From Gemmatimonadota bacterium (GTDB taxonomy: Bacteria > Gemmatimonadota > Gemmatimonadetes > Palauibacterales > Palauibacteraceae): 64,000 bases of DNA. Position numbers and translations under genes: made by a program. This document shows positions 8,202 through 23,682 of this stretch, piece after piece (positions within the stretch are counted from its first letter, which is position 1; every line of letters begins with the position of its first letter). The notes under the pieces are model-generated. The model was not told the origin of the DNA and made no database searches. It was given only the letters and a program-made list of their open reading frames with translations. The DNA is taken from NCBI GenBank assembly GCA_965116475.1, contig OZ220691.1:2944001-3008000 (forward strand), in the 5' to 3' direction.

Positions 8202-9030
8202 CCGGCCTGCGGCGTGCCCCCGCTGCGGGATCCCCGCGTCGGGAAACTTCTGCGCGCAATGCGGGGCCCCGCTCGTCCGGCGCGCGGGGTGTCCGGCCTG
8301 CCAGGCGCCGCTCCGGGCGGACGCCCTCTACTGCACCGCCTGCGGTACGCCCGTGGGCGCTCCGCCGCGGAAGCCGCGCTCGGCCCTGCTCCCCTGGATT
8401 CTCTCCGGCCTCGGGCTGGTGGTCTTCTCGGTGATGATCGCCGTACTCGTCCAGCGCGGAAGCGTGACGCGAATCGGAGACATGACGATGACGGGCGGCC
8501 TTCCGGGCGAGACGACGGGTGCCCCGCCGGTGGCCGGGGCAGCGGAGAACGGTGCCGGGGGCGCCGGAATGCCGAGCATGGAGGAACTCGCGGCCATGGG
8601 CCCGCGCGGCGTCGCCGACCGGCTCTTCGAGCGCGTGATGCGGGAGCACGAGGGGGGCGACTTCGAGCGCGCCGCCTTCTTCATCGACATGGCGCTGCAG
8701 GCGTACGATGCCGTCCCTCCGGAAGAGATCGATGCCGATGCGCGGTTCCACGTCGGCCTCCTCCGTCTCCTCATGGGCGAGTCCCGGCTCGCCCGGGACC
8801 AGGCGGATGATATCCTCGCCGCGCATCCGGACCACCTGCTCGGGCTCCTGCTCGCCGCGCGGGCGGCCGACTTCGAGGAGGACGCGGACGGGGCGGAGGC
8901 GTTCCGAGCCCGAATCCGCGAGCGGGTGGAGGCGGCCGGGGGGATCCCTGACCTCCCCGAATACCAGGCCCACCGGACGCTGATCGAGAACGTGCTGCAG
9001 ACGGACGGCGGAGCGGGAGGGGGCGCGTGA
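8197..9030 (+). CDS. double zinc-ribbon membrane protein with TPR-like C-terminus
   Basis: Four CxxC pairs (CPRC, CAQC, CPAC, CTAC), one TM helix, helical C-terminal region. Confidence 0.75.
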   Translation: MNRPAACPRCGIPASGNFCAQCGAPLVRRAGCPACQAPLRADALYCTACGTPVGAPPRKPRSALLPWILSGLGLVVFSVMIAVLVQRGSVTRIGDMTMTGGLPGETTGAPPVAGAAENGAGGAGMPSMEELAAMGPRGVADRLFERVMREHEGGDFERAAFFIDMALQAYDAVPPEEIDADARFHVGLLRLLMGESRLARDQADDILAAHPDHLLGLLLAARAADFEEDADGAEAFRARIRERVEAAGGIPDLPEYQAHRTLIENVLQTDGGAGGGA

Positions 9031-10220
9031 CCGGCTCCGGCGCGACCGGAAGTGCGACCGGAAGCACGCCCGCGCAGGCCGTCGGCCGGCGGATGGCCGA
9101 CCTGCGCGACGAGTTCGTCGACTTCATCTCCCAACTCGTGCTCGAGGAATCCCCGTCCACCGACCCCGAGGCCCAGCGCGGCATCCGCGCGATCCTGACC
9201 GAGACGCTGAGCGACCTCGGGTTGGACGTGGATCACATCCCGGGACAGGCGAGCGGGGGTCACCTGCTGGCCCGGGGCGCCGAGGCGGTGGACGGCGGGT
9301 CGGCGGCGACCGGGGCACAGCTTCTCGTGGGCCACATGGACACGGTGTGGCCCATCGGCACGCTGCGGGAAATGCCGGTGCGCGTGTCCGACGGGCGTCT
9401 TTCGGGCCCGGGCGCCTTCGACATGAAGACGGGACTGGCGATCGGCGTGTTCGCGCTGCGGGCGCTGCGGGATCTCGGGCTGGACGCGGGCGTCTCACCC
9501 GTCTTCTTCATCAACTCGGACGAGGAGATCGGGAGCCCCGAATCCGAGCCGCTGATCCGCGATCTGGCGCGCGGTGCGTCCCGGGCCTTCGTCCTCGAGC
9601 CCGCGCTGGGCGCCGGCGGCCGGCTCAAGACGCGGCGCAAGGGGATCGGCCAGTACCACGTCGAGGTCGCGGGGCGGAGTTCGCACGCGGGACTGGCCCC
9701 GGAAGAGGGGGCGTCGGCGATCCTCGAACTCGCGCACGCGATCCGGCAGATCGACCGCCTGGCGGACCCCGGAACCGGGACGACGATGAACGTGGGGCTC
9801 ATGGAGGGCGGCTCCCGCCCCAACGTGGTCGCCGCGAGCGCGAGCTGCGAGGTGGACGTGCGCGTGTGGACGGCTGCGGAGGCCGACCGCATCCGCGAGG
9901 GGATGTTCGGACTGGAATCCACCGTGCCGGGGACGCGGATCCAGGTCACGGAGGTCGCGAGACGCGGGCCGCTGGAGCGCACGCCGCGCAACGTCGCGCT
10001 CTGGGAGCGGGCGCTCCGGGTCGCGGACGAGATTGGCCTCGAACTGGAGGAGGGATCGGCGGGCGGCGGCTCGGACGGTAACTTGACGAGCCAGTACACG
10101 GCGACGCTCGACGGGCTGGGGGCGGTCGGCGACGGCGCCCACGCCCGGCACGAGTTCGTGTGGATCGACCGGGCCGTGGAGCGCGTCGCATTGCTGGCGG
10201 GGCTGATCGCCGCACCGTAA
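9027..10220 (+). CDS. M20 metallopeptidase, glutamate carboxypeptidase-like
   Basis: GHMDTVW, GPGAFDMK, SDEEIGS, VLEP, GGGSDGN, GAHARHE. Confidence 0.88.
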   Translation: MTGSGATGSATGSTPAQAVGRRMADLRDEFVDFISQLVLEESPSTDPEAQRGIRAILTETLSDLGLDVDHIPGQASGGHLLARGAEAVDGGSAATGAQLLVGHMDTVWPIGTLREMPVRVSDGRLSGPGAFDMKTGLAIGVFALRALRDLGLDAGVSPVFFINSDEEIGSPESEPLIRDLARGASRAFVLEPALGAGGRLKTRRKGIGQYHVEVAGRSSHAGLAPEEGASAILELAHAIRQIDRLADPGTGTTMNVGLMEGGSRPNVVAASASCEVDVRVWTAAEADRIREGMFGLESTVPGTRIQVTEVARRGPLERTPRNVALWERALRVADEIGLELEEGSAGGGSDGNLTSQYTATLDGLGAVGDGAHARHEFVWIDRAVERVALLAGLIAAP

Positions 10221-10265
10221 CGGCGGACGACCCGCCGCAGGGCTTCGAGAGGCGGCTTCGACGAG

Positions 10266-11708
10266 ATGTTCTTTCGACAGGTTTTCGACGACACGCTCGC
10301 GCAGTACGCGTACCTCATCGGCTGCCAGCGTACCGGGGACGCGATCCTCTTCGATCCGCAGCGCGACATCGACCGCTACGTGGAACTGGCGGCGAGCGAA
10401 GACCTGCGGATCGTCGCCGTGGCCGAGACGCACATTCACGCCGATTTCCTCTCCGGCGCGAGAGAGTTCGCCGAACGCTTCGGGACGCGCCTCTACCTGT
10501 CCGATGAGGGCGGCCCGGACTGGCGGTACGAGTGGGCCCGCGACGGAGGCTACGACTTCGTACCGCTCCGGGACGGCGCCCGCTTCGAAACCGGCGAGAT
10601 CGCCTTCCAGGCGCTGCATACGCCGGGGCACACGCCCGAGCACATGTCGTTCCTCGTCACGGACCGTGGCGCGGGAGCGGACGAGCCCATGGGCCTCCTC
10701 TCGGGGGACTTCGTCTTCGTGGGCGACCTCGGCCGGCCCGACCTGCTCGAGACGGCGGCGCGGGTCGCCGGCGCGATGACGCCCGCGGCGCGCCGGCTGT
10801 ACGGCTCGGTGCGGAGCTTCCTCGACCTGCCCGACTACCTGCAGGTGTGGCCGGCCCACGGCGCCGGTTCCTCGTGCGGAAAGGCGCTCGGGGCCGTGCC
10901 GGAGACGACCGTGGGGTACGAGCGGCGCTTCAGCCCGGCGATCGCCGCCGCGCTGAAGGGGGAGGATGCCTTCGTCTCCCACATCCTCGAGGGACAGCCC
11001 GAGCCGCCGATGTACTTCGCCCGCATGAAGCGGGACAACCGCGATGGCGCCCCGGTTCTGGGCGGCCTCCCGCGCCCGCGCCGCGTCTCGCCGCGCGAGG
11101 CGGCCTCTCGCGCCCTGGCCGGTGCGAGCGCCGGGGATGTCGTGATCGACACGCGGCCGGACCGGTCGGCGTTCATGGCTCGGCACCTGCCGGGGTCGGT
11201 CTACGTTCCCCTCACGAAGTCGTTCTGCACCGCCGCGGGCTCCGTCCTGCCGGAGGGCGCGGCGGTCACGCTCGTCATCGACGAGACGGATCTCGAGTGG
11301 GCGGTGCGGCGCCTGGTGCGGATCGGGTTCGACGACGTGACGGGCTTCGTGGAGCACGGAGCGCTCGACCGATACTTTGACGAGGGTGGGGAGGCGGCCT
11401 CGATCCCGGAGATCGACCTTCAGGCCGCGAGCCGGCTGTCGACGAGTGGGCGGGGCGAGGTGCTCGATGTGAGGTACGCTGCGGAGTACGCGGCGTCGCA
11501 CCTTCCCGGAGCGGTCAACGCCTCCTACACGCGGCTGCCCGACTACGCGGACCGGCTGCCGCCGAACGGCTCGCTGCTCGTACATTGCCTGAGCGGCGCG
11601 CGGGCCGCGGTGGCCGCGAGCTACCTGGCCCGCGAGGGGCGCGACGTGCACTACATCAACGACCTGTTCACCGCGTACGCGGGATCGCTGGAAACCGGAG
11701 GACCCTAG
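10266..11708 (+). CDS. MBL-fold hydrolase with two rhodanese domains (persulfide dioxygenase/sulfurtransferase-like)
   Basis: ETHIHADFLSG, HTPGHTPEH, GDLGRPDLLE, PAHGAGSSCGK, C-terminal VHCLSGAR. Confidence 0.88.
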   Translation: MFFRQVFDDTLAQYAYLIGCQRTGDAILFDPQRDIDRYVELAASEDLRIVAVAETHIHADFLSGAREFAERFGTRLYLSDEGGPDWRYEWARDGGYDFVPLRDGARFETGEIAFQALHTPGHTPEHMSFLVTDRGAGADEPMGLLSGDFVFVGDLGRPDLLETAARVAGAMTPAARRLYGSVRSFLDLPDYLQVWPAHGAGSSCGKALGAVPETTVGYERRFSPAIAAALKGEDAFVSHILEGQPEPPMYFARMKRDNRDGAPVLGGLPRPRRVSPREAASRALAGASAGDVVIDTRPDRSAFMARHLPGSVYVPLTKSFCTAAGSVLPEGAAVTLVIDETDLEWAVRRLVRIGFDDVTGFVEHGALDRYFDEGGEAASIPEIDLQAASRLSTSGRGEVLDVRYAAEYAASHLPGAVNASYTRLPDYADRLPPNGSLLVHCLSGARAAVAASYLAREGRDVHYINDLFTAYAGSLETGGP

Positions 11709-11710
11709 GC

Positions 11711-14068
11711 ATGGTTACACGCACAGAGATTCGACTGGAGATCCGACCGCTTGCGGCCGCCTGCGCCGTTGTCGCGGCCTTCGCCGCCCTGACCTGGGCT
11801 GCCGCTCCCGCGCCGCTGGCCGCGCAGGGGTTCGGCACTTCGGTCGTCGTCGTCGAGGACGCGGTGCTGGTGGGGGAGCCCACCTCCGAGCGGGAGCCCG
11901 GAAGCGTGCGCGTCTTCCGCGCCGGCGACTGGACGGAGGCCCAGGCGCTGTACGCCCCGGAGGCCGCCGTGCGAGACCGCTTCGGGGTCGCGTTGGCGGC
12001 CGTGGGTTCCCGACTTTTCGTGGGCGCCCCGGGCGCGGGCGCCGTTCACGTGTACGAGCGGGGTACGGAATGGCTGCACGCGAGAGAAGTCCTTTCTCCG
12101 GGCCTGGAGGAGTTCGGGCACTCGCTGGCCGCCGGGGACGAGCACCTTCTCGTGGCGGGTCGGGACGGTTCCAACGGACAGAACGTTGTCGTCGCCTACC
12201 GGCGCGCGGTCGGCGGCGGATGGGAGGAGGATGTCCGGCTCTCGGCGGACCCCGGCCAAACAGGATTCGGGGCCTCCATCGCGCTGGCGGGCGACCTCGC
12301 CCTGATCGGCGCGCCGCTCGCCGACGAGGCTCGGGGTGCGGCGTACCTGTTTCGCTTCGACGCGGCGGCAGGCTGGCAGCGCGTAGCCCACCTGGTCGGC
12401 GATGGCGGTGAGACCGGGCGCGCCCTCGGATCGGCCGTGGCGTTCGCGGGCGACGAAGCACTCGTCGGGGCGGCCGGAGAGGACGAGGGGTTGGGCGCCG
12501 TCCACCGATTCGCAAGGAACGCCGATGGCGAATGGCAGCGCGTGGGGACGATCGGGCCGGACAACCAGCCTCCCACCGCCTTCGGCGCCGCGCTCGCCGT
12601 GGACGGCGATGTCGCCTGGGTCGGCGCCCCGGCGGCCGCCTACGGCCAAGGTCTCGTGTACCGCCTCGACCGCGTTGGGGACGGCTGGACTGTCGATCAC
12701 GGGTGGGAGATGCCGGGCCGGGAACCTGCCCCGGCGGGCCGAGTGGTTGCGGTGGGTGGCGGACACGTCGTGGCGGGTCTCCCCACCGACGACTTCGGGG
12801 CCGGATCCGTCATCGTCCGCGCGGCCGATGCCGATGAAACCGAGATCGTCCGGCTCGTGAGCGAACAGGTCGGGCTCTCCTCGATCTCGGGCGGCCAGAT
12901 CGACTGCGAGGAGGGGCTCGCCGAGGGCTTCGACTGCGACCGTGTGGACCTCCTCTCCTTCATCCCGCGGGAAGAGCTCGGCGCCCCCCGCGGCGTCCGC
13001 CTCAACGACGTGTGGGGCTGGACCGATCCGTTGACGGGAAGCGAATACGCGCTCGTGGGCCGCATGGACGGCATCGCGTTCGTCGACGTGACGGATGCGT
13101 TCAACCCGCGGTATCTCGGCAACTTCGCCAAGACGCCCGGCAGCCGGTCGAACACGTGGCGCGACATGAAGGTGTACCGGGACCACATGTTCGTCGTCGC
13201 CGACGGGGCGGGGCAGCACGGGATGCAGGTCTTCGACCTCACCCAGCTGCGCGACGTCACGGAGCCCCGGGAGTGGGAGCCCACGGCGCTGTATGAAGAC
13301 GTCGCCTCGGTCCACAACGTCGCGATCAACGAGGAGACGGGCTTCGCGTACCTGGTGGGCGCCTCCGGAGGCGGCGAGACGTGCGGCGGCGGTTCGCACA
13401 TCGTCGACATCAACGACCCGCTCAATCCCGTGTTCGTCGGCTGTTTCGCCCATCCGAACACCGGGCGCCGCAACACCGGGAACTCGCACGACACGCAGTG
13501 CGTGATCTACCATGGCCCCGACGAGGACTACGCGGGCCGCGAGATCTGCGTGAACGCGAACGAGACGGCGATTTCGATCGCGGACGTGACGGACAAGTCG
13601 AACCCGGTCGCCGTGGCGCGCGCCGAGTACCCGAACGTGGCCTACGCGCACCAGGGCTGGCTCACGGAAGACCACGCGTACTTCTATTCCAACGACGAAC
13701 TCGACGAAGTGAGCGGGCAGGTGGACGCGACGCGGACCCTCGTGTGGGATCTGCGGGACCTCGACGATCCACTCCTCGTCCGGGAGTACTACAGCGAGAC
13801 GAAGGTCACGGACCACAACCTCTACGTCCGCGGCGACCGCCTCTACATGTCGAACAACCGCGCCGGGCTGCGCGTGCTCGACATCAGCGACCCGGAGAAC
13901 CCGACGGAGGCGGGGAGCTTCGATACCACGCCCTGGGGCGAGGACGCGGCGGGCTTCGACGGCACGTGGAGCGTCTACCCGTACTTCGAAAGCGGGACGA
14001 TCCTCCTCTCGAGCCGCCGCGAGGGTCTGTTTCTCGTGAAGGCGCGGGACGAGCGACTTGTTCCCTGA
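11711..14068 (+). CDS. secreted FG-GAP-repeat plus choice-of-anchor B (LVIVD-like) protein
   Basis: Signal peptide, repeated FGxxxA..GAP units, NDVWGWTDP, WRDMKVY, YAHQGWLTED, HNLYV, WSVYPYFESG. Confidence 0.85.
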   Translation: MVTRTEIRLEIRPLAAACAVVAAFAALTWAAAPAPLAAQGFGTSVVVVEDAVLVGEPTSEREPGSVRVFRAGDWTEAQALYAPEAAVRDRFGVALAAVGSRLFVGAPGAGAVHVYERGTEWLHAREVLSPGLEEFGHSLAAGDEHLLVAGRDGSNGQNVVVAYRRAVGGGWEEDVRLSADPGQTGFGASIALAGDLALIGAPLADEARGAAYLFRFDAAAGWQRVAHLVGDGGETGRALGSAVAFAGDEALVGAAGEDEGLGAVHRFARNADGEWQRVGTIGPDNQPPTAFGAALAVDGDVAWVGAPAAAYGQGLVYRLDRVGDGWTVDHGWEMPGREPAPAGRVVAVGGGHVVAGLPTDDFGAGSVIVRAADADETEIVRLVSEQVGLSSISGGQIDCEEGLAEGFDCDRVDLLSFIPREELGAPRGVRLNDVWGWTDPLTGSEYALVGRMDGIAFVDVTDAFNPRYLGNFAKTPGSRSNTWRDMKVYRDHMFVVADGAGQHGMQVFDLTQLRDVTEPREWEPTALYEDVASVHNVAINEETGFAYLVGASGGGETCGGGSHIVDINDPLNPVFVGCFAHPNTGRRNTGNSHDTQCVIYHGPDEDYAGREICVNANETAISIADVTDKSNPVAVARAEYPNVAYAHQGWLTEDHAYFYSNDELDEVSGQVDATRTLVWDLRDLDDPLLVREYYSETKVTDHNLYVRGDRLYMSNNRAGLRVLDISDPENPTEAGSFDTTPWGEDAAGFDGTWSVYPYFESGTILLSSRREGLFLVKARDERLVP

Positions 14069-14071
14069 CCC

Positions 14072-15751
14072 ATGTGTTCCGTCCTCGGCATCTTCGAGAT
14101 CGAGCCCGGCGCGGCGGGCCTCCGCCGCCGGGCGCTCGACCTGTCGCGGCGCCAGCGGCACCGCGGGCCGGACTGGAGCGGCGTCTACGCGGGCGAGCGG
14201 GCCATCCTCGCCCACGAGCGGCTCTCCATCGTCGACGTGGAGAGCGGGGCGCAGCCCCTGTTCGGTCCCGACCGCACGACGGTGCTCGCGGTCAACGGGG
14301 AGATCTACAACCACACGGAGCTGGAGCGCGGCGCCGCGCGCGGCTATCCGTTCCGGACGCGCTCCGACTGCGAGGTCATCCTCGCGCTGTACGACGGGCG
14401 GCCCGACGACCCCGCGGAGTGGCTCAACGAGCTGAGCGGGATCTTCGCCTTCGCCCTCTACGACGAGACGCGCGACCGCTACCTGATCGCGCGCGATCCC
14501 ATCGGCGTCATGCCGCTCTACACGGGGCGGGACGCGGAGGGGCGCTTCTACGTGGCCTCCGAGATGAAGGCGCTCATCGACACCTGTCCCGAGATCCACG
14601 ACTTCCCGCCGGGACACATGCTCGACAGCGGCGAGGGCGATGGCCGGCCGGTGCCGTACTACCGCCCGGGGTGGCGTGAGTACGACGCGGCGGCGGGCGG
14701 ACCGACGGATCCCGCGCGGGTGCGCGACGCGCTGGAGGAGGCGGTGCATCGGCAGCTGATGTCGGACGTGCCGTACGGCGTACTCCTCTCGGGCGGCCTC
14801 GACTCGTCGATCATCTCGGCGCTGGCCATGAAGTTCTCGCGCCGTCGCGTCGAGTCGGACGACAAGGAGGAGGCGTGGTGGCCCCGGCTCCATTCGTTCG
14901 CCATCGGACTCGACGGCGCTCCGGACCTGGAGGCGGCCCGCGCCGCGGCCGACGCGATCGGCACCGTGCATCACGAGATCGTCTACACGCTCCAGGAGGG
15001 ACTCGACGCGATCTCCGACGTCATCCGGCACCTCGAGACGTTCGACGTGACGACGGTGCGGGCGTCCACCCCGATGTACCTCATGGCCCGCCGCATAAAG
15101 GCGACGGGGATCAAGATGGTGCTCTCGGGCGAGGGCGCGGATGAGGTCTTCGGGGGCTACCTCTACTTCCACAAGGCCCCCGACGCGCGGGCGTTCCACG
15201 ATGAGACCGTCCGCAAGCTCGACCAGCTCCACAAGTACGACTGCCTGCGCGCGAACAAGTCGATGGCGGCGTGGGGGGTGGAGGCGCGCGTCCCCTTCCT
15301 CGACCGCGAGTTCCTCGACGTCGCCATGGCCCTCGACCCGGAGTCGAAACGGCCCACGGACGGCCGCATGGAGAAGCACATCCTGCGCGAGGCGTTCGAG
15401 GGACTCCTCCCGGACGAGATCCTGTGGCGCCAGAAGGAACAGTTCTCCGACGGAGTGGGCTACTCCTGGATCGACAGCCTGAAGGAGATGGCCGAGGGCG
15501 AGATCGGCGACGGACAACTCGCCAGGGCGGCCGCGCGCTTCCCCACCAACACGCCGCTCACGAAGGAAGCGTATCTCTACCGCTCGATCTTCGCGTCGCA
15601 CTTCCCCGGAGAGCCGGCCGTCCGCTGCGTCCCGGAGGGCCCGAGCATCGCGTGCAGCACGCCGGCGGCCATCGCCTGGGATCCCGCCTTCGCCGGCATG
15701 GCCGACCCCTCGGGCCGCGCCGTGCAGGGCGTGCACGCCCACAGCTATTGA
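14072..15751 (+). CDS. asnB: glutamine-hydrolysing asparagine synthetase B
   Basis: N-terminal MC, RHRGPDWSG, HERLSIVD, NGEIYNH, LLSGGLDSS, SGEGADE, RVPFLD, RQKEQFSDGVG. Confidence 0.97.
   Translation: MCSVLGIFEIEPGAAGLRRRALDLSRRQRHRGPDWSGVYAGERAILAHERLSIVDVESGAQPLFGPDRTTVLAVNGEIYNHTELERGAARGYPFRTRSDCEVILALYDGRPDDPAEWLNELSGIFAFALYDETRDRYLIARDPIGVMPLYTGRDAEGRFYVASEMKALIDTCPEIHDFPPGHMLDSGEGDGRPVPYYRPGWREYDAAAGGPTDPARVRDALEEAVHRQLMSDVPYGVLLSGGLDSSIISALAMKFSRRRVESDDKEEAWWPRLHSFAIGLDGAPDLEAARAAADAIGTVHHEIVYTLQEGLDAISDVIRHLETFDVTTVRASTPMYLMARRIKATGIKMVLSGEGADEVFGGYLYFHKAPDARAFHDETVRKLDQLHKYDCLRANKSMAAWGVEARVPFLDREFLDVAMALDPESKRPTDGRMEKHILREAFEGLLPDEILWRQKEQFSDGVGYSWIDSLKEMAEGEIGDGQLARAAARFPTNTPLTKEAYLYRSIFASHFPGEPAVRCVPEGPSIACSTPAAIAWDPAFAGMADPSGRAVQGVHAHSY
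15566..15751 (+). repeat. left copy of a 186-bp direct repeat (3' end of asnB)
   Basis: Manual alignment with 17164-17349: 11 mismatches, no indels. Confidence 0.95.
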
Positions 15752-15793
15752 CACGCTAACGCCCAGATCGCTCAGAGGGCTGACTTCAGCGCT

Positions 15794-16828
15794 TCAGAGT
15801 CCGTCTCCACGCGGAAGGTCGTACCAATAAAGGGTGTTGACGCCCAGGCCCGAGGTGTCCGGTTCGATCCCCAGCAGGCGATCGCCCTTGACCATTAAGT
15901 CCCGCGCCGGTGCTCTCAGCACCACGGTCTCAACGAAGGACGGTTCGTGGCCGAGCCGAAAGAGATCCACATACACGTGCTTGGCCTCTCGAAGGTGTGG
16001 TAGCCAAAGCCGACCGACAGCGTCGATGCCTCCCCACCCGTACCATGGAAGCGCCTGACTGCGCAGATCTTCGATCGACAGTCCCGCTGTCCAGCCACCT
16101 TCCCGCGCGCGCCGCGCCTGATTATCGCGGCGTCTTTGAACCACGGATTCCTCCGGCAAGCGCTCTTCGTAGGTTGGAGATGAAAGCACGGTTACTCGCC
16201 CCTCAAGCCCATCCGGATACCACAACAGGTATTCCCCGAAACAGGTAAAATAGAGAACGCCGGCTGCCACCAAGTGAGCGCTTTGTACTTTCACCTGCCC
16301 GTACCCCGGCGAGGTCCGACACCTCACGTCGGCTCCGTCCGGCCGTCCCCGCCAGAGCACCTCGCCGGTCCCGAGATGAATCTCCGCATCGGAACCTGGC
16401 TCCATCGCCAACGCCGTACTGTCTCCGCCACCGACAAGCAGGGTCCACCTCTGCGACGACGGCATGGATTCAACGAAAGTTCCCTCGGCGGTGAATCTCG
16501 AAAACCGCTGTAGGTGAGCGTCATAAAGGACAAGATCCCCATTCGACGTGGGCACGAGCCCCATGGGCGATTCCATCTCGCCTGGGCCCTCACCTCTTGT
16601 GCCGAACGACCAGCGGTTTCCGTGAATGTCTCCACAGTTGACCCGATAAAGAAAAGGATCCACCGCGCATACTGTATCGGGCGAAGGCAGGGACAGCCCC
16701 AGCAGAGTCCCGTCGAACCGGGTCGTCGCCACCGGCTCAATCTCCATCAGGTTAGCCGGCCCCGCCTGCTCTTCGCCGTCACAACCCAGAAGCAGGCCCG
16801 CCCCCAACAGAGCTACTGAAGTCCGCAC
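15794..16828 (-). CDS. lipoprotein, probable 6-bladed beta-propeller (NHL-like)
   Basis: Lipobox LLLG-C, FGTRGEGPGEM, LYD...RFSRFTAEGTFV, IDAVGRLW; start overlaps the end of the small gene upstream. Confidence 0.75.
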   Translation of the reverse strand: MRTSVALLGAGLLLGCDGEEQAGPANLMEIEPVATTRFDGTLLGLSLPSPDTVCAVDPFLYRVNCGDIHGNRWSFGTRGEGPGEMESPMGLVPTSNGDLVLYDAHLQRFSRFTAEGTFVESMPSSQRWTLLVGGGDSTALAMEPGSDAEIHLGTGEVLWRGRPDGADVRCRTSPGYGQVKVQSAHLVAAGVLYFTCFGEYLLWYPDGLEGRVTVLSSPTYEERLPEESVVQRRRDNQARRAREGGWTAGLSIEDLRSQALPWYGWGGIDAVGRLWLPHLREAKHVYVDLFRLGHEPSFVETVVLRAPARDLMVKGDRLLGIEPDTSGLGVNTLYWYDLPRGDGL

Positions 16829-17067
16829 TCGTCATCCATGCAGGCCCAGAACACCCGGCTGCCCGCCGACGTAGCCATAATCTCGATCGCCTCGTCGGTG
16901 AGACGATTGCCGATCGCCTCCAGCCGCTCTCGAGTGGCGTTGTACTCATCCATTCCCTGGTCGTGGCAGCCCTGCGTGCAGAGGTCTGGAGCCACCTGCC
17001 CGCTCAAGGAAAGGCTCGTCGCGAACAGCAGCGTCAGCGTCGTTGCAATCCGTCGGATCGAACGCAT
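16813..17067 (-). CDS. small (84 aa) secreted protein with four Cys (CxxxC...CxxxxC)
   Basis: GGAGGA RBS, signal peptide MRSIRRIATTLTLLFATSLSLSG, CTQGC and CMDDEC. Confidence 0.7.
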   Translation of the reverse strand: MRSIRRIATTLTLLFATSLSLSGQVAPDLCTQGCHDQGMDEYNATRERLEAIGNRLTDEAIEIMATSAGSRVFWACMDDECGLQ

Positions 17068-17118
17068 GATTCCTCCACCTTCCATAGGATTAGTAAGAAT
17101 CCGTATCGTGATTGCGAT

Positions 17119-17150
17119 ACCCTACGCGTGCGGGGGGGGGGGGGGTGCAA
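17119..17150 (-). promoter_or_regulatory. candidate sigma70 promoter with a homopolymer in the spacer
   Basis: Minus strand TTGCAC (17150-17145), 20-bp spacer mostly poly-C, TAGGGT (17124-17119); G14 at 17132-17145 on the plus strand. Confidence 0.5.
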
Positions 17151-17163
17151 GCACAGAGTTCAA

Positions 17164-17349
17164 GAAGCGTATCTCTACCGCTCGATCTTCGCGTCCCACT
17201 TCCCCGGCGAGCCCGCCGTCCGCTGCGTCCCGGCGGGTCCGAGCATCGCGTGCAGCACGCCCGCGGCCATTGCCTGGGACCCCGCCTTCGCCGGCATGGC
17301 CAACCCCTCGGGCCGCGCCGTGCAGGGCGTCCACGCCCACAGCTACTGA
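17164..17349 (+). pseudogene. asnB: duplicated 3' fragment of asnB (61 codons plus stop), right copy of the direct repeat
   Basis: Encodes EAYLYRSIFASHF...VHAHSY; no plausible start of its own. Confidence 0.92.
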
Positions 17350-17383
17350 CTCTAAGCGTCAGTTCATCGAGGAGGGAACCGAG

Positions 17384-18640
17384 ATGAGGATCTGGCGGGA
17401 AGGAGATCGCGGGTACGCCCTCGCGCCTGCCGTGTTGGCGGCGATGTTGACGGTCTCGCCCGCACTCTCGCAGGTGCGCTGCGAAAACGGTACGGCGGAT
17501 GGGTTTCCGTGCGATCGCGTGGATCTGCTCGCCGTCGTCGCGCCCGGGCAACTCGGCGCCGGCGGGGACACCCTGCTCAACGACGTGTGGGGATGGACGG
17601 ACCCCGAGACGGGGAGGAACTACGCGCTCGTGGGACGAACGAACGGGACTGCGTTCGTCGACGTGAGCGACCCTTCCCAGCCGCGCTATGTCGGCGACCT
17701 CCCCGCGACCGAGGGCAGCGAACCCGGCCAGTGGCGGGACATGAAAGTGTTCCGCGATCACCTGTTCGTCGTTGCGGGAGGCCCGGTCCGCCATGGCATG
17801 CAGATCTTCGACCTCACGCAACTCCGGGATGTCCCGGAAGCGCGGGAGTTCCGGCCTGCGGCCACCTACGACGGGGTCGCGTCGAGCCACAACATCGTCA
17901 TCAACGAGGAGACCGGCTTCGCCTATCTGGTCGGGTCCGCGGTGGAGGGCGAGACGTGCGACGGGGGATCTCACATCGTCGACATCAACGAGCCGTTGAA
18001 CCCCATCTTCGTCGGCTGCTTCGCACATCTCGCCACGGGCCGCCGGGGTACCGGCTATACCCACGACGCGCAGTGCGTCATCTACCGCGGTCCCGACGGG
18101 GACCATCGAGGCCGCGAAATCTGCGCGGGCGGGAACGAGACCCACTTCTCGCTGGCCGACGTAACGGATAAGTCGAACCCCGTCCCGCTCTCGGCGGCCC
18201 AATACCCCGGCACCGGGTACGCGCATCAGGGGTGGTTCGGCTAGGACCACCGCTACTTACGGCAACGACGAACTCGACGGACTCGTGCGGGATATGCCTG
18301 GGCCTCGCGTGCTCGTGTTCGACGTCAGCGACCTGGAAGATCCCATACTGGTGAACGAGTACTTCGGTCCGGCGAAGGCCAGCACGCACAACCTGTACGC
18401 GCGCGGCGACCGGCTCTACATGGCGAACAACCTCGGCGGCCTCCTCGTCCTCGATCTCACCACCCCGAGACCCCGGTCACGGCCGGCAGCTTCGACACGA
18501 CGCCGTCCAGCGCGGACGAAGTCGGGTTCGGCGGGGCCTGGAGCGTCTATCCGTTCTTCGAGAGCGGGACGATCCTCGTCTCAAGCCGCCGCGAGGGCCT
18601 CTTCCTCCTCCAAATGTCCGCGCGCGAAGGGACTCGCTGA
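17384..18640 (+). pseudogene. disrupted choice-of-anchor B paralog
   Basis: Colinear with the C-terminal half of 11711-14068; in-frame TAG at 18242-18244 (GWFG*DH vs GWLTEDH), frameshifts near 18255 and 18460; WSVYPFFESG tail ends at TGA 18640. Confidence 0.85.
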
Positions 18641-18729
18641 GTCTTCAACGGGTGGTTTGCGCCCTCCGTCGCCGGACGGACATCTTGTGAGACGCAGTCG
18701 GGATTCTCACGCAAGTTCGAGGTCGAGCG

Positions 18730-20757
18730 ATGATGTACGGCAGATTCCGTGCGGTCTCCCTTTCGGCGTTTCTCCTCCCGTTCATCGGCGTGTTGTCGGC
18801 AAGTGCTCCGGTTGCGGCGCAGGAGGCGGTTTCGGTCGAACTCGTGCCGAGCGTGCTGTCGCTCGAGGTAGGGGAGGAGGCCACGCTGGAGGCGCGCGTT
18901 CTGGACGCGGAGGGGAACGTGATCGAGGCGCCGGTGCTCTTTTTTCCGAGTTTCGCGGATGGGCGAAGCGGGAGCGCGCGACGGAGCCTCGATGTGGACC
19001 GTGTCACGGGCCGCGTTCGGGCTGTGAAAGGCGGCGAGTTCCTCATCTCCGCTGTCGTGACCACCGCGCGGAACCTGCGTGCGGCGGCCGTGCCGGTGAG
19101 CGTGGCGTTCCCGCCACTCGACAGGATCGATGTGACGCCCGCGGGCGGTTCGACGTATGTCGGCGTGGCGACGCGCCACCGGGCCGGACTGCTCGACACC
19201 GCCGACGATGAGCGCGACGGCGAGATCCGCTGGTCCACCTCCGACGAAAGCGTCGCGACCGTGGACCGCTTCGGCATCCTCACGGCGCACGCGCCCGGAC
19301 AGGTGGTGCTGCGGGCCGAAGCGGAAGGCATCGCCGCGGAGGTCGCCTACGAGGTCAGGGAAAACCCCGCCGCTCGCCTGACGGTGTCCGGGAGCGCGGA
19401 GCGGGCGCGGACGGGCGACGTCGTGCGTTTCGAGGCGACTGTCGAGGACGCGATGGGCGGCGCGGTGGGCGACCTGCCGGTCACCTGGACCGTGATGTCG
19501 GATCCCTCCATCGAGGCGACGGCGGACATTCCTCCCGCGGAGATCGATGAGCAGGGCCGGTTCGTGGCCTATTTCCCCGGCGTGTACACGGTCGTGGCGA
19601 ACGTGCCGGGCCGTGCCGCGCGCACCTCGCTGGAAGTGCATCCGCGACACGCCTCGCAGGAAGTGACGTTCGTCGGGCAGGGACAGGTCAACAACGAGCG
19701 CACCTCGGATCTGTGGGTGTGGGAGGGCGTCGACGGCCGCGACTACGCGATCACCGGTACGCACGCCGCGGCGGGCGCCGTCTACTTCTGGGATGTGACG
19801 GATCCGGCGAGTCCCGTCCTCACGGATTCCGTCGTTGTCGATGCGCGCACGACGAACGACGTGAAGGTGAGCGAGGACGGGGAGGTCTGCGTCATCTCGC
19901 GCGAGGGCGCCTCCAACCGCCGCAACGGGATCGTCATCCTGGACTGCCGGAACCCGCGGGACGTGACCACGATCTCCGTGTTCGACGACGAGCTTACCGG
20001 CGGCGTCCACAACCTCTTCATCCACGACGGTCACGTGTACGCGGTGAACAACGGGCGCCGCTTCGACGTGATCAACATCGAGGACCCCGCCAGCCCGCAC
20101 CGCGTGGGCCGGTTCGAACTCGACACCCCCGGGCATGCGATCCACGACATCTGGATCGTGGACGGGATCGCGTACACCTCGAACTGGGGCGACGGGGTCG
20201 TGCTCATCGACGTGGGCGGCGGGGACCTCGGGGGCTCGCCCTCGAATCCGGTCGAGATCGCCCGCTTCCGCGACATCGGCGGGCGGACGCACGCCGCCTT
20301 CCCGTACCGGAGTCCCACGGGGCGCTTCTACGTGTTCATGGGAGACGAGGCGGGGCGGCCGGGCTTCGACGGGCAGGATCCCGAGCGCACGCCGCAGTTC
20401 ATGTCCGGGTACATCCACGTGGTGGACTTCACGGACCCGGAAAACCCGGAGGAGGTCGCGCGTTACGAGATCCCCGAGGCGGGCTCGCACAACATGTGGA
20501 TCGAGGACGACAAGCTCTACGCCGCGTTCTACAACGGCGGGCTGCGGGTGCTCGACATCTCCGGCGAACTGAAGGGGAACCTGGGCGAGCAGGGCCGGGA
20601 GATCGCGCGCTACATGGCGTACGACCCGGACGGCGTGGTGGCGAACGCGCCCTTCACCTGGGGACCGCAGATCCACAAGGGGAACCTCTTCTTCGCGGAG
20701 TACTTCAGCGGCCTGTGGGCGGTGAAGCTCCAGCCGCGCCAGGAACTCGTCCCTTAA
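18730..20757 (+). CDS. secreted protein with Ig-like domains and LVIVD repeats
   Basis: Signal peptide, WSTSDESVATVD (Big_2-like), repeated D..NP..P units, HN/HD motifs, YNGGLRVLDISG. Confidence 0.8.
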   Translation: MMYGRFRAVSLSAFLLPFIGVLSASAPVAAQEAVSVELVPSVLSLEVGEEATLEARVLDAEGNVIEAPVLFFPSFADGRSGSARRSLDVDRVTGRVRAVKGGEFLISAVVTTARNLRAAAVPVSVAFPPLDRIDVTPAGGSTYVGVATRHRAGLLDTADDERDGEIRWSTSDESVATVDRFGILTAHAPGQVVLRAEAEGIAAEVAYEVRENPAARLTVSGSAERARTGDVVRFEATVEDAMGGAVGDLPVTWTVMSDPSIEATADIPPAEIDEQGRFVAYFPGVYTVVANVPGRAARTSLEVHPRHASQEVTFVGQGQVNNERTSDLWVWEGVDGRDYAITGTHAAAGAVYFWDVTDPASPVLTDSVVVDARTTNDVKVSEDGEVCVISREGASNRRNGIVILDCRNPRDVTTISVFDDELTGGVHNLFIHDGHVYAVNNGRRFDVINIEDPASPHRVGRFELDTPGHAIHDIWIVDGIAYTSNWGDGVVLIDVGGGDLGGSPSNPVEIARFRDIGGRTHAAFPYRSPTGRFYVFMGDEAGRPGFDGQDPERTPQFMSGYIHVVDFTDPENPEEVARYEIPEAGSHNMWIEDDKLYAAFYNGGLRVLDISGELKGNLGEQGREIARYMAYDPDGVVANAPFTWGPQIHKGNLFFAEYFSGLWAVKLQPRQELVP

Positions 20758-20788
20758 CGGGATCGGACTCGGGAACGGGATCGGATTC
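20756..20788. repeat. 18-bp-period tandem duplication between a stop and the next start
   Basis: AACGGGATCGGACTCGGG then AACGGGATCGGATTC. Confidence 0.8.
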
Positions 20789-20789
20789 C

Positions 20790-21317
20790 GTGCGAGTATC
20801 CGCCCGGATCAACGGCACGGCGTGGTCCGGGGAGGTGGAGCCGCGTCTCCTCCTGTCGGACTTCCTGCGCTCCGAGGTCGGGCTCACCGGCACGCACGTG
20901 GGGTGCGAGCACGGCGTGTGCGGGGCGTGCACCGTGCAGCTGGACGGGGAGCCCGTGCGGGCCTGTCTCATGTTCGCGGTGCAGATCGACGGGCACGAGG
21001 TGACGACCGTCGAGGGGCTCGCCGAAGTGCAGCCGGGAGAAGCGATCACCGTCGAACGACTGCACTGGGTCCAGCGGGCCCTGCACGAGGCGCACGGGCT
21101 GCAGTGCGGCTTCTGCACGCCGGGCATCCTCATGACCGCGGAGGCCTTCCTGCGCGAGAACCCGGCGCCGTCGCGGGAGGAGATCCGCGAGGCCGTGTCC
21201 GGGCACCTGTGCCGGTGCACGGGCTACCACAACATCGTGGAGGGCGTCGCGCTCGCGGCCGAGCGCCTCGCGGCGGACGGCCCCGACCGCGGCGCCGACG
21301 GGGACGGGGACCCTTGA
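20790..21317 (+). CDS. [2Fe-2S] small subunit, CoxS/CutS family
   Basis: GCEHGVCGACTV, QCGFCTPG, GHLCRCTGY; GTG start inferred. Confidence 0.9.
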   Translation: MRVSARINGTAWSGEVEPRLLLSDFLRSEVGLTGTHVGCEHGVCGACTVQLDGEPVRACLMFAVQIDGHEVTTVEGLAEVQPGEAITVERLHWVQRALHEAHGLQCGFCTPGILMTAEAFLRENPAPSREEIREAVSGHLCRCTGYHNIVEGVALAAERLAADGPDRGADGDGDP

Positions 21318-21333
21318 GCCGCGTGGACCGCGC

Positions 21334-23682
21334 ATGAGCCGGGCGGGCAGGACGTGGGTCGGGGCGCGGGTGCCGCGCAACGAGGACGCGCGGCTGCTGA
21401 CCGGCCGCGCGCAGTTCGTCGAGGACGTGGAGCCGCCCGGCGCGCTGCACGTCGCCTTCGTGCGCAGCGACCTGCCGGCCGGCCGGCTGCGCGGGCTCGA
21501 CGTGAAGAACGCGCGGGCGCACCCCGGAGTCCACGCCGTATTCACGGCCGCCGATCTCGGCCCGCTCCTCCGGCCCGGCGCGGTGCTCGTGCCGCCGCCG
21601 CCGCTCGAGGGGCTGGTGTTCCACGCCCGCACGGCGCTCCCTCTCGTCCGCGACCGGATCCGGCACCAGGGCGAAGCGCTCGCGATGATCGTCGCGGACA
21701 GCCGCTACGTGGCCGAGGACGCGGCCCAGCTCGTGGAGGCTGACATCGAACCGCTCGATCCCGTCGTGGATCTCGGGCGGGCGCTCGATGGGGACGCGCC
21801 GCTTATCCACGACGACCTCCCGTCGAACCTCGCCGCCCACGTCCGGCAGGCGAAGGGGGACTACGCCGCCGCCCGCGCGCGGGCCGACCTCGTCCTCGAG
21901 CGCCGCTTCTCCTACGACCGGGGCATCGGGGGCGCGATCGAGAACCGGGCCGTCGTGGCGGAGTGGGATGCGCGGGCCGACCGGCTGCAGGTCTGGGACA
22001 CGACGCAGGCCCCCATTCCGGTGCGCAACGTCGTCGCCGCGACGCTCGGCCTGTCGGAGTCGCAGGTGCGGTTCATCGCCCCCTTCGTGGGCGGCGGCTT
22101 CGGCCCGAAGATCATGTTCTACGCGGAGGAGATCCTCATCCCCTGGGCCTCGATCCAGCTGGGGCGGCCCGTGAAGTGGGTCGAGGACCGGTACGAGAAC
22201 TTCTTCGCCACCACCCAGGAGCGGGGGCAACTGCACGAGGCGGAGATCGCGGTAACGCGCGACGGCCGGGTCCTGGGCGTGCGCGACACCTTTCTCCACG
22301 ACTCGGGCGCGTACGACCCCTACGGTCTCACGATCCCCATCAACACCCAGTGCACGCTGCTCGGGCCCTACCGGGTGCCGAACTACGAGAGCGAATTCCG
22401 GGTCGCCTTCACGAACAAGCCGATCGTCACGCCCGTGCGCGGCGCCGGCCGGCAGCACGGCGTGTTCGTCATGGAGCGCCTGCTCGATCTCGCGGCGCGC
22501 GGGCTCGGCCTCGATCCGGTCGAGATCCGCCGCCGCAACGTGATCGGTTCGGACGAGTTCCCGTACAACCACGAGATCATGTACCAGGACTTCGCCCCCC
22601 TGCGGTACGACAGCGGGAGTTACGAGGCGTCGCTGGCCGAGGCCGTCCGCCTCGTCGGCTACGACGAGACGTTCCCGCGGGAACGCGAGCGCGTGCAGGC
22701 GGACGGACGCGTGGTCGGTGTCGGCGTCGTCAACTACGTGGAGGGGACGGGCATCGGCCCCTACGAGGGGGCGCGGGTCACGGTCGAGCCGAGCGGCACG
22801 GTCCGCCTCGCGACCGGCGTGGGCACGCAGGGCCAGGGACACTTCACGGCCTTCGCGCAGATCGTGGCCGACGCGGTCGGCGTGACGCCGGCTGACGTGC
22901 GGGTGGTGACGGGGGACACGAGCGACTTCCATTGGGGGACGGGCACCTTCGCGAGCCGGGGGGCGGTCGTCGCCGGAAACGCGATCCACGCCGCTGCGCT
23001 GTCCGTGCGCGAGAAGATCCTGCGCCACGCCGCCGAGGCGCTCGAAGTCGACCCGGATGACCTGGAACTCGCCGACGGCGCCGCCCGCGTGCGGGGCGCC
23101 CCGGACCTGTCCGTCGACCTCGGCGCGCTCGCGGTGAGCGCCAACCCGCTCAGGGGAGCCGTGGCGCCGGGGACCGAGCCGGGGCTGGAGGCGACCTCGT
23201 ACTTCGGCCCGCCGTACGGGACGACCGCAAACGGGACGCACGCCGTCGTCGTGGCGGTCGATCCGGAGACGGCGATGGTCGAGATCCTGCGCTACCTCGT
23301 CGTGCACGACTGCGGGACGGTGATCAACCCGACGATCGTGGAGGGCCAGATCCACGGCGGCGTCGCGGCGGGGATCGGGAACGCCTTCTACGAGGAACTC
23401 GTGTTCGACGAGTTCGGCGGGACGAGCAACGCCTCGTTCATGGACTACCTGCTTCCGACATCGACGGACGTGCCTCCGATCGAGACGGCTCACGTCGAGA
23501 CGCCGTCGACGCTGAACCCGCTGGGCACGAAGGGGGTGGGGGAGGGCGGCGCCATCCCGGTCGCGGCCGCCTTCGCGCAGGCCGTCGAGGACGCGCTGGC
23601 GGACATCGCCCCGGGGCTGGAAGTCCTCGACATCCCGCTGAGTCCCGGCCGCCTGTTCGAACTCCTCCAGGCGGCATCGTGA
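21334..23682 (+). CDS. xanthine dehydrogenase-family molybdopterin large subunit (CoxL/CutL-like)
   Basis: EDARLLTG, GGGFGPK, PVRGAGR, GQGHFT, GTFASR, GQIHGG, KGVGE. Confidence 0.92.
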   Translation: MSRAGRTWVGARVPRNEDARLLTGRAQFVEDVEPPGALHVAFVRSDLPAGRLRGLDVKNARAHPGVHAVFTAADLGPLLRPGAVLVPPPPLEGLVFHARTALPLVRDRIRHQGEALAMIVADSRYVAEDAAQLVEADIEPLDPVVDLGRALDGDAPLIHDDLPSNLAAHVRQAKGDYAAARARADLVLERRFSYDRGIGGAIENRAVVAEWDARADRLQVWDTTQAPIPVRNVVAATLGLSESQVRFIAPFVGGGFGPKIMFYAEEILIPWASIQLGRPVKWVEDRYENFFATTQERGQLHEAEIAVTRDGRVLGVRDTFLHDSGAYDPYGLTIPINTQCTLLGPYRVPNYESEFRVAFTNKPIVTPVRGAGRQHGVFVMERLLDLAARGLGLDPVEIRRRNVIGSDEFPYNHEIMYQDFAPLRYDSGSYEASLAEAVRLVGYDETFPRERERVQADGRVVGVGVVNYVEGTGIGPYEGARVTVEPSGTVRLATGVGTQGQGHFTAFAQIVADAVGVTPADVRVVTGDTSDFHWGTGTFASRGAVVAGNAIHAAALSVREKILRHAAEALEVDPDDLELADGAARVRGAPDLSVDLGALAVSANPLRGAVAPGTEPGLEATSYFGPPYGTTANGTHAVVVAVDPETAMVEILRYLVVHDCGTVINPTIVEGQIHGGVAAGIGNAFYEELVFDEFGGTSNASFMDYLLPTSTDVPPIETAHVETPSTLNPLGTKGVGEGGAIPVAAAFAQAVEDALADIAPGLEVLDIPLSPGRLFELLQAAS

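Follow-up and report, generated by a model that had tools for sequence, protein, structure and literature searches.

Phage 21 and the element e14 integrate at the 3' end of a protein-coding gene, icd of E. coli, and carry a substitute for the end that they displace; ICESt1 and the integrase-less cis-mobilisable elements (CIMEs) found at fda of Streptococcus thermophilus use a gene end in the same manner. These elements encode or depend on a tyrosine integrase and have a short fixed core. Here we examine a locus in a Gemmatimonadota bacterium of the family Palauibacteraceae at which the 3' end of asnB, a housekeeping gene for asparagine synthetase, is present twice, once on either side of a two-gene insert. 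It lies in a stretch of 64,000 nucleotides (contig OZ220691.1, positions 2,944,001 to 3,008,000), which we call the window; positions given below without a contig prefix are counted from its first nucleotide. With moderate confidence, we regard the second copy of the asnB end, called the remnant below, as the scar of a homology-driven additive insertion at a recombination hotspot, and as a sequence that later served as a homology arm.

Gene exchange of a related kind has been described in other settings. In transfer hotspots, as the relevant part of Oliveira et al. (PMC5635113) presents them, variable genes lie between conserved flanks, mobility genes are few and exchange proceeds by homologous recombination. 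The Neisseria 'minimal mobile elements' are portrayed similarly in the portion of PMC3787668 devoted to them, as variable genes between conserved flanks that are exchanged by homologous recombination. In arrays of rhs genes, of contact-dependent inhibition (CDI) genes and of type VI secretion system (T6SS) genes, incoming DNA, anchored at the conserved upstream portion, brings a new 3' end, and the old end is pushed downstream together with the genes that follow it, leaving strings of orphan ends; the section of PMC5361080 on this displacement names no known integrase and proposes homology-facilitated illegitimate recombination (HFIR) as its cause. For E. coli, the pertinent part of PMC3240628 reports that one-sided HFIR usually yields a deletion and that locus duplications of 109-950 bp arise from single crossovers with circular molecules.

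A repeat search of the window returned a direct repeat of 187 nt (15566-15752 and 17164-17350, 94% identity, spacing 1598). Copy 1, on the plus strand, is the working 3' end of asnB, that is, its last 62 codons with the stop and one nucleotide more. Copy 2, on the same strand, has no 5' gene part and is not an intact gene; the repeat search, the codon comparison and the comparison with a consensus mark it as a displaced asnB 3' end. When the two copies were aligned codon by codon in the asnB frame, 11 substitutions and no indels were found, nine of the changes being synonymous and two non-synonymous (E to A at 15635 and D to N at 15704). Each copy is terminated by TGA, and the leading 32 nt are identical. 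Third codon positions hold nine of the 11 differences (P = 0.0014 under equal hitting of positions); the identity of the 32 leading bases is not significant (P = 0.12 for none of 11 substitutions falling there). The repeat flanks the insert and completes an intact asnB through copy 1, as attL and attR sequences would. This asnB (14072..15751, plus strand) encodes a glutamine-hydrolysing asparagine synthetase of 559 aa in which both the class-II amidotransferase domain (Pfam GATase_7/GATase_6, with GATase_7 at 8e-38) and Asn_synthase (8e-88) are present. In 17 genomes of the genus the gene is 1674-1680 nt long with one terminal stop, and the protein starts with MCSVLG in those 17; we take Cys2 to be the catalytic residue of the amidotransferase domain. 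The insert between the repeat copies measures 1.4 kb, carries two genes on the minus strand and has a GC content of 0.59-0.64, compared with 0.68-0.74 in asnB and the upstream genes. The first-pass annotation of this DNA had described the doubling of the last 62 codons, the 11 substitutions (nine synonymous, two non-synonymous), the lack of indels and the more A/T-rich insert, and it was correct in every detail.

A DNA search found the cargo and the remnant together in three of 36 genomes of the genus, namely the genome of the window (G000), G002 and G043. Over asnB, cargo and remnant, identity to G000 is 91-92% in G002 and 88% in G043, and both junctions are identical in position across the three. 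A contig of 5065 nt from a sponge-metagenome run (X1) carries asnB, cargo and remnant in one piece at ~96% identity and skips geneA', the pseudogene that follows the remnant in the window; contigs of two other runs, X19 and X20, extend from the cargo into the remnant with no difference to the window (15688-17193). Several independent assemblies thus contain the arrangement, which is not an artefact, and the original insertion predates the split of the species. Since the junctions are shared with G002 and G043, whose remnants are decayed, the first insertion is old, and the idea that it is recent or private to one genome has to be given up. The carriers do not form an exclusive clade: over the next 20 kb, the cargo-less genomes G012, G041, G003, G022 and G016 are 89-93% identical to G000, compared with 90-91% for G002 and 87-89% for G043. 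Pairwise identities, which do not amount to a formal recombination test, are incongruent among the segment designated 'up', the left-flank gene geneA, asnB and the right flank. In geneA, G000 pairs with G002 (89.9% versus 85-86% to the others); in asnB, it is roughly equidistant from all genomes compared (92.0-93.8%). The cassette has either been lost repeatedly, by recombination between its own repeats or by replacement with empty alleles, or spread between species by recombination.

The three remnants were then set against a consensus of 22 working tails. The G000 remnant departs from it by 10 substitutions (8, 1 and 1 at codon positions 3, 2 and 1, respectively) and has no indel or stop. 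The G002 remnant shows 24 substitutions (12, 6 and 6), a 1-nt deletion and an in-frame TAG, and the G043 remnant shows 20 substitutions (11, 4 and 5) and three inserted nucleotides. For the working tails, the count of substitutions is 5-19, almost entirely at third positions, and the G000 remnant falls within this range. Changes outside the third position number two in the G000 remnant versus 12 in that of G002 (P = 0.0065) and nine in that of G043 (P = 0.033). The end branches of the tail tree follow the same order, with 0.051 for the G000 remnant, 0.28 for G002 and 0.15 for G043, the median of all rows being 0.046. The G002 and G043 remnants are decayed, and the G000 remnant looks like a recently working allele. 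The first-pass annotation had read the synonymous excess as a sign that both copies were once working alleles, one of them imported. The third-position excess and the place of the G000 remnant within the working range support the first part of this claim. The import does not extend to all of the differences, however: copy 1 carries synonymous changes at tail positions 45, 117, 168 and 183 of 186 that occur in few or no other tails, and these four of the 11 differences arose on the working copy's own lineage. A supposed sharing of decay between the G002 and G043 remnants at positions 61 and 87 was rejected, the bases being different in each, and only position 109 is shared.

A C at position 33 and the left junction are common to all three remnants, and C33 occurs in none of the working tails; the G000 remnant would thus be a chimera with an old edge and a young body. 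The DNA that follows the remnant differs from carrier to carrier. The G002 remnant is followed by a spacer like that of G022/G003 and by the right-flank gene; that of G043, by a spacer and a geneA' that has its own start; and that of G000, by 34 nt and a fused start with geneA', which matches the asnB-downstream type of G020 and G051. The body of the G000 remnant has probably been renewed through homologous exchange. Most simply, a working asnB tail with its downstream DNA would have replaced it and the sequence behind it, by a crossover inside the remnant past position 33. This could have happened on entry of the cassette into a G000-lineage asnB that was still naive, with asnB and the old remnant as arms, or through replacement of the old remnant by DNA from a cassette-free relative; both routes would give the same result.

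The interval behind asnB is a gene-content hotspot. Among the 21 genomes for which both flanking genes were in the retrieved DNA, the right-flank gene begins between 139 nt and more than 15 kb past the asnB stop. A minimal interval of 139-194 nt, which represents the empty site, is found in seven of them, and the non-minimal intervals have at least ten different contents. These include a 198-aa gene starting MKILREGDRGYALAP or shortened forms of it, geneA', other beta-propellers, a TonB-dependent receptor, DUF4143 and AAA_15 ATPases, and giant LRR/Big_2 proteins. Transposases are present in two intervals (IS630-type in G010 and IS1595-type in G013). A Pfam scan detected no integrase among 29 open reading frames (ORFs) from variable intervals of eight genomes; these ORFs had been preselected as at least 80 aa long with a GC content at third codon positions (GC3) of at least 0.66. 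Fragments of asnB bound one cargo type only, in three of the 36 genomes by DNA search and in three of the 21 with both flanks. The exchange hotspot proposed in the first-pass annotation is borne out by the variable interval and by the empty sites in relatives; its picture of variable cargo generally bounded by asnB fragments is not supported. Its remark that no recombinase is present holds as well: Pfam matched none of the ORFs of window 1-35 kb to a recombinase or transposase, and the nearest PF00589 match, one of six tyrosine-recombinase matches in the single 3.62-Mb contig of this genome, is ~285 kb away from the locus.

The homology-assisted recombination that had been mentioned as a possible route fits these data. 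We envisage that DNA of a related genome, comprising its own asnB 3' end and the two-gene module, was added behind asnB and not swapped in, and that the resident asnB 3' end was pushed downstream and became the second tail. A circle bearing ~190 nt of asnB and the cargo would produce the order tail-cargo-tail by one homologous crossover in the tail. Alternatively, one homologous crossover and one illegitimate join upstream of the end of homology would lead to the same topology. Host recombination functions would suffice, and no integrase would be needed. Once in place, asnB and the remnant would offer two homology arms for ordinary recombination with relatives. The genome encodes ComEC and Ku (PF02735, 4e-43, G000:C1:3368541-3369050; found in one of 14 control genomes), so that end-joining and DNA uptake are at least plausible, on circumstantial grounds.

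Several observations weigh against insertion and renewal by homology. No microhomology or other mark identifies the original joint, and a donor with asnB and cargo but without the remnant occurs in none of the 36 genomes of the genus. The tree of both copies against other alleles, which had been suggested at the outset, was built from the 186-nt tails, but none of its 24 branches is starred, and the approximately unbiased (AU) test rejects neither a clade of the three remnants (p 0.37) nor a grouping of the G000 remnant with the G000 working tail (p 0.36). With no resolved branch in this tree, the case for renewal is built on the decay pattern, the flanks and a single diagnostic site. The G002 and G043 remnants, which are 32 substitutions apart, share one change that is absent from working tails (position 109). 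A search for empty-site and circle joints had likewise been proposed. Empty sites exist in seven of the 21 genomes, but neither a joint that removes 15752-17350 nor an empty site or circle was seen in four runs, three of them represented by contig sets, which drop rare forms, and the fourth, a raw-read run, by seven reads. The six tyrosine recombinases of the genome, one of them P4-like, also count here, since they might act in trans.

Contig depths in run X19 are ~48-54 on asnB and on the 3' part of the right-flank gene but 36-43 on the cargo, on geneA' and where the right-flank gene starts. This drop hints at a co-occurring variant that has the flanks but not the islet, with the proviso that contig depth is not a strain count. 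A GAAG/GAAG repeat is found at the left edge. An extension of the remnant to the left appeared suggestive in G043 and was discarded, as 287, 308 and 61 of 500 shuffles reach the score.

Two further inserts at the locus bear on the manner of insertion. In G043, a second partial duplication comprises 354 nt of asnB tail, 98.9% identical to that genome's own working tail and separated from the working asnB by a 3.3-kb module. An in-frame fusion joins this tail to the end of a 577-nt fragment from the 5' part of the right-flank gene; the fragment comes from a foreign allele and has 82% identity with the resident G043 copy. At the fusion breakpoint, nt ~1327 of asnB is joined to nt ~655 of the downstream gene; the cassette shared by the three carriers starts at ~1495. 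The fusion ORF is open (327 aa, L047 5626-6609, minus strand), with ~215 N-terminal residues from the foreign Big_2/choice-of-anchor-B allele followed by the last ~113 asnB codons. In G020, repeats of 65 nt (77%) that correspond to the beginning of the next gene enclose geneA'. Each of three inserts at the locus is therefore flanked by a duplicated part of the neighbouring, homologous sequence (187, 354 and 65 nt), at three different places. The different breakpoints argue against a fixed attachment site or a single integrase site, and three differing duplications are what would be expected from homology-driven insertion of random locus fragments from relatives. The dedicated anchoring site on asnB that had been put forward for the cassette does not agree with the second duplication of G043 and its other breakpoints.

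As far as the cited sources describe them, hotspots and minimal mobile elements resemble the asnB locus in having differing gene sets between the same two genes in close relatives, in being mostly without mobility genes, in showing flanks with apparently incongruent histories and in a mechanism that would need no more than host recombination. Those systems, in the same descriptions, are double-crossover replacements that duplicate no gene end, whereas exchange at asnB would be additive and leave a displaced tail, seemingly reused as a homology arm. The displaced asnB tail can be viewed as the housekeeping-gene counterpart of the C-terminal displacement set out in the part of PMC5361080 on rhs and T6SS loci. 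There, the displaced ends of the rhs, CDI and T6SS genes are variable toxin domains accompanied by immunity genes and subject to diversifying selection; the asnB ends, unlike these, are near-identical enzyme tails, and the cargo has no relation to asnB. Campbell-type integration, too, places an insert between direct duplicates of part of the locus (109-950 bp in E. coli), although the duplications in the cited part of PMC3240628 come from a laboratory plasmid system, and no circular intermediate was seen at asnB.

Many bacterial gene-gain hotspots have no integrase, and gene addition, as opposed to swapping, is poorly documented outside toxin loci. The asnB locus is a clear natural example in a housekeeping gene, where the displaced end marks the insertion as additive. 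The process is known in outline; what is noteworthy here is the remnant series, with three states of decay in three species, one of them apparently renewed by a later exchange, together with the apparent reuse of a remnant as an arm and the recurrence at a second locus.

Events of this type leave a simple signature, a gene end repeated directly over a short length and terminating with the stop codon, that can be looked for throughout a genome; self-comparison of the present one yielded at least one additional case. The last 132 nt of a gene for a dipeptidyl peptidase IV (DPP-IV)/S9 peptidase (C1:1108852-1111440, minus strand) are repeated at 1101770-1101900; the tail copy is 88.6% identical and lacks 1 nt, and each of the two copies runs as far as the stop codon. 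The island of 7 kb between them has a GC content of 0.54-0.61 and encodes a split C5 cytosine methyltransferase joined to an HhH-GPD domain and three proteins of unclear function. It contains no integrase, and the site is empty in most relatives. G013 has its own DPP-IV tail remnant, behind a 1.4-kb insert with a PLD-type nuclease, and a TIR-domain gene lies beyond; in G017, an island starts at the DPP-IV stop codon with no detectable remnant. A left boundary that seemed common to the G000 and G013 remnants, and would have indicated a fixed site, was withdrawn: both remnants fade gradually to the left of a conserved block, and the apparent boundary came from a local alignment effect.

The same comparison returned other repeats. 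One of 123 nt (94%) derives from an internal 3' part of a sarcosine-oxidase-alpha-like gene and lies beyond a gene for a TolB-like six-bladed propeller (C1:1957688-1959847); it may be a further displaced gene end, once more with a propeller gene as the insert. The pair at C1:2663061/2666999 was set aside as a similarity between paralogous Ig-domain genes and not a gene-end scar. The repeat pair 1234425/1236137 flanks a DUF3800 gene.

It is conceivable, though we lean against it, that the displaced tail is more than a scar and takes an active part in integrase-free cassette movement. A circle with one tail and the cargo would then be released when the working tail and the remnant recombine, and host RecA could re-insert it into the intact asnB of a relative, with a new remnant formed each time. 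A double crossover with asnB and the remnant as arms could have the same outcome. One hop of this kind would have left the chimeric G000 remnant, with its old edge, young body and different surroundings downstream, as its footprint, and the DPP-IV locus, with remnants in G000 and G013 and differing defence-like cargo, would be a second site in this sponge-associated genus.

We consider it unlikely that the locus is a site-specific integrative element at the asnB 3' end, equipped with a replacement tail, whose integrase was deleted or is encoded elsewhere and acts in trans, as with CIMEs. Such an element would explain why the copy next to the cargo restores the gene with the displaced tail at the far end, why the repeat ends at the stop codon and begins with an identical stretch, why the cargo has a lower GC content and why relatives have empty sites. 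Trans action by one of the six tyrosine recombinases, for instance the P4-like one (C1:2673395-2674942), is possible, and a second gene-tail duplication surrounds a foreign island in the same genome. The asnB locus also resembles phage 21/e14 and ICESt1/CIMEs in its mainly synonymous tail duplicate, in the element copy that restores the gene and in a displaced tail reduced to a pseudogene fragment. It differs from them in that no integrase was found, either in the 29 interval ORFs of the eight genomes or in window 1-35 kb, and in that a fixed core is unsupported: the identity of the 32 leading bases is what chance could give, and no shared crossover core emerges. Moreover, the asnB tails flank a single cargo type, the cargo is a paralogue of a resident two-gene module and not typical element cargo, and the second duplication of G043, which joins asnB from nt ~1327 to a piece of the right-flank gene, used another site. 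A synonymous-biased duplicate of a gene tail does not by itself indicate an integrase-borne element.

An origin by internal rearrangement without foreign DNA, starting from a local tandem duplication of the asnB end and the sequence downstream of it and proceeding through deletions and the entry of the propeller module, is improbable in our judgement. Paralogues of both cargo genes are present in the same genome, geneA and geneA' on either side of asnB are paralogous, and the near-identity of the 354-nt fragment of G043 to its own working tail would suit a local copy. At only 43% and 36% identity, however, the paralogues are too distant for the cargo to be a recent internal copy; the G000 tails differ mainly at third positions, as separate working alleles do; the right-flank-gene piece in the G043 fusion is only 82% identical to the resident copy; and the GC content of the cargo is below that of the flanks. 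As for a chimeric assembly of two strains collapsed at the asnB tail, which the first-pass annotation had named as a possible refutation, the genome is a single contig and probably a metagenome-derived assembly, and the repeat breaks short-read contigs at 15595-15688 and 17193-17321, but the recurrence of order and junctions in the assemblies of two other species and in the spanning X1 contig, along with the exact X19 and X20 matches from cargo into remnant, reduces the chance of it to almost nothing.

Turning to the cargo itself, cargo1 (15794..16828, minus strand) encodes a predicted lipoprotein of 344 aa, with an LLGC lipobox read from the sequence and a six-bladed beta-propeller of DUF5128 type; its likeness to DUF5128 clusters was 0.95 in a language-model feature search of a protein atlas. 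Its nucleotide identity is 92% in G002 and 91% in G043, and it belongs to a paralogue family within the genome, the best member being 43% identical. Cargo2 (16813..17085, minus strand) is an ORF for a small predicted secreted protein of 90 aa with a signal-peptide-like N-terminus. Its sole paralogue (36%) is directly upstream of the best cargo1 paralogue (G000:C1:1563995-1565429), and on account of this adjacency cargo1 and cargo2 form a two-gene module. The propeller paralogue at G000:C1:1563995-1565429 holds one in-frame TGA. Neither cargo gene had a match in Pfam, NCBIfam or PADLOC. In metagenome contigs, 69 pattern matches to cargo1 relatives were obtained and none was confirmed, and a DNA pattern specific to the junction had no matches, so that strain-level variants came from neither search.

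Between the cargo2 start and the remnant there is a homopolymer of 14 G residues (17132..17145, plus strand), a length that none of 100 shuffles reached and one of only three homopolymers of at least 10 nt in the 3.62-Mb genome. Its counterpart is G10 in G002, is interrupted in G043 and is 6 nt shorter in the X1 contig. The tract is situated ~50-75 nt upstream of the cargo2 start and reads as poly-C on the module's coding strand. It could be a slippage-prone switch for expression of the module. A promoter and terminator scan of 15500-17500 gave no promoter-like site and one terminator-like site, as by chance.

The locus is embedded in ordinary chromosomal DNA, with a metallo-beta-lactamase/rhodanese protein encoded before geneA and a xanthine-dehydrogenase-type enzyme after the right-flank gene. 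The conserved left flank, geneA (11585..14068, plus strand), encodes a secreted FG-GAP/LVIVD/choice-of-anchor-B protein (Pfam FG-GAP_2 and LVIVD; NCBIfam TIGR04312, 1.5e-132); it is upstream of asnB in the relatives examined, and its true start may be later than the listed TTG. The conserved right flank (18730..20757, plus strand) encodes a Big_2/LVIVD/choice-of-anchor-B protein by Pfam and NCBIfam matches. The choice-of-anchor-B paralogue geneA' (17384..18640, plus strand) is a pseudogene: a tblastn comparison with the intact G020 orthologue showed an in-frame TAG near 18242 and a stretch in a shifted frame, after which the original frame resumes. According to an alignment of start regions, the ~15 initial codons of geneA' originate from the beginning of the 'MKILREGDRGYALAP' gene, which is intact in relatives. 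The geneA' sequence recurs with no differences in contigs of two runs. No tRNA was found in 9000-23000 and no Rfam family in 13000-20000.

Finally, a pair of palindromes (ATTCAC-N3-ATGAAT and ATTCAC-N3-GTGAAT, 7 nt apart) is conserved in G020, G044, G051 and G008, 20-70 nt past the asnB stop and upstream of the gene starting MKIL or of geneA', and is absent behind the G000 remnant. This pair looks like an operator.

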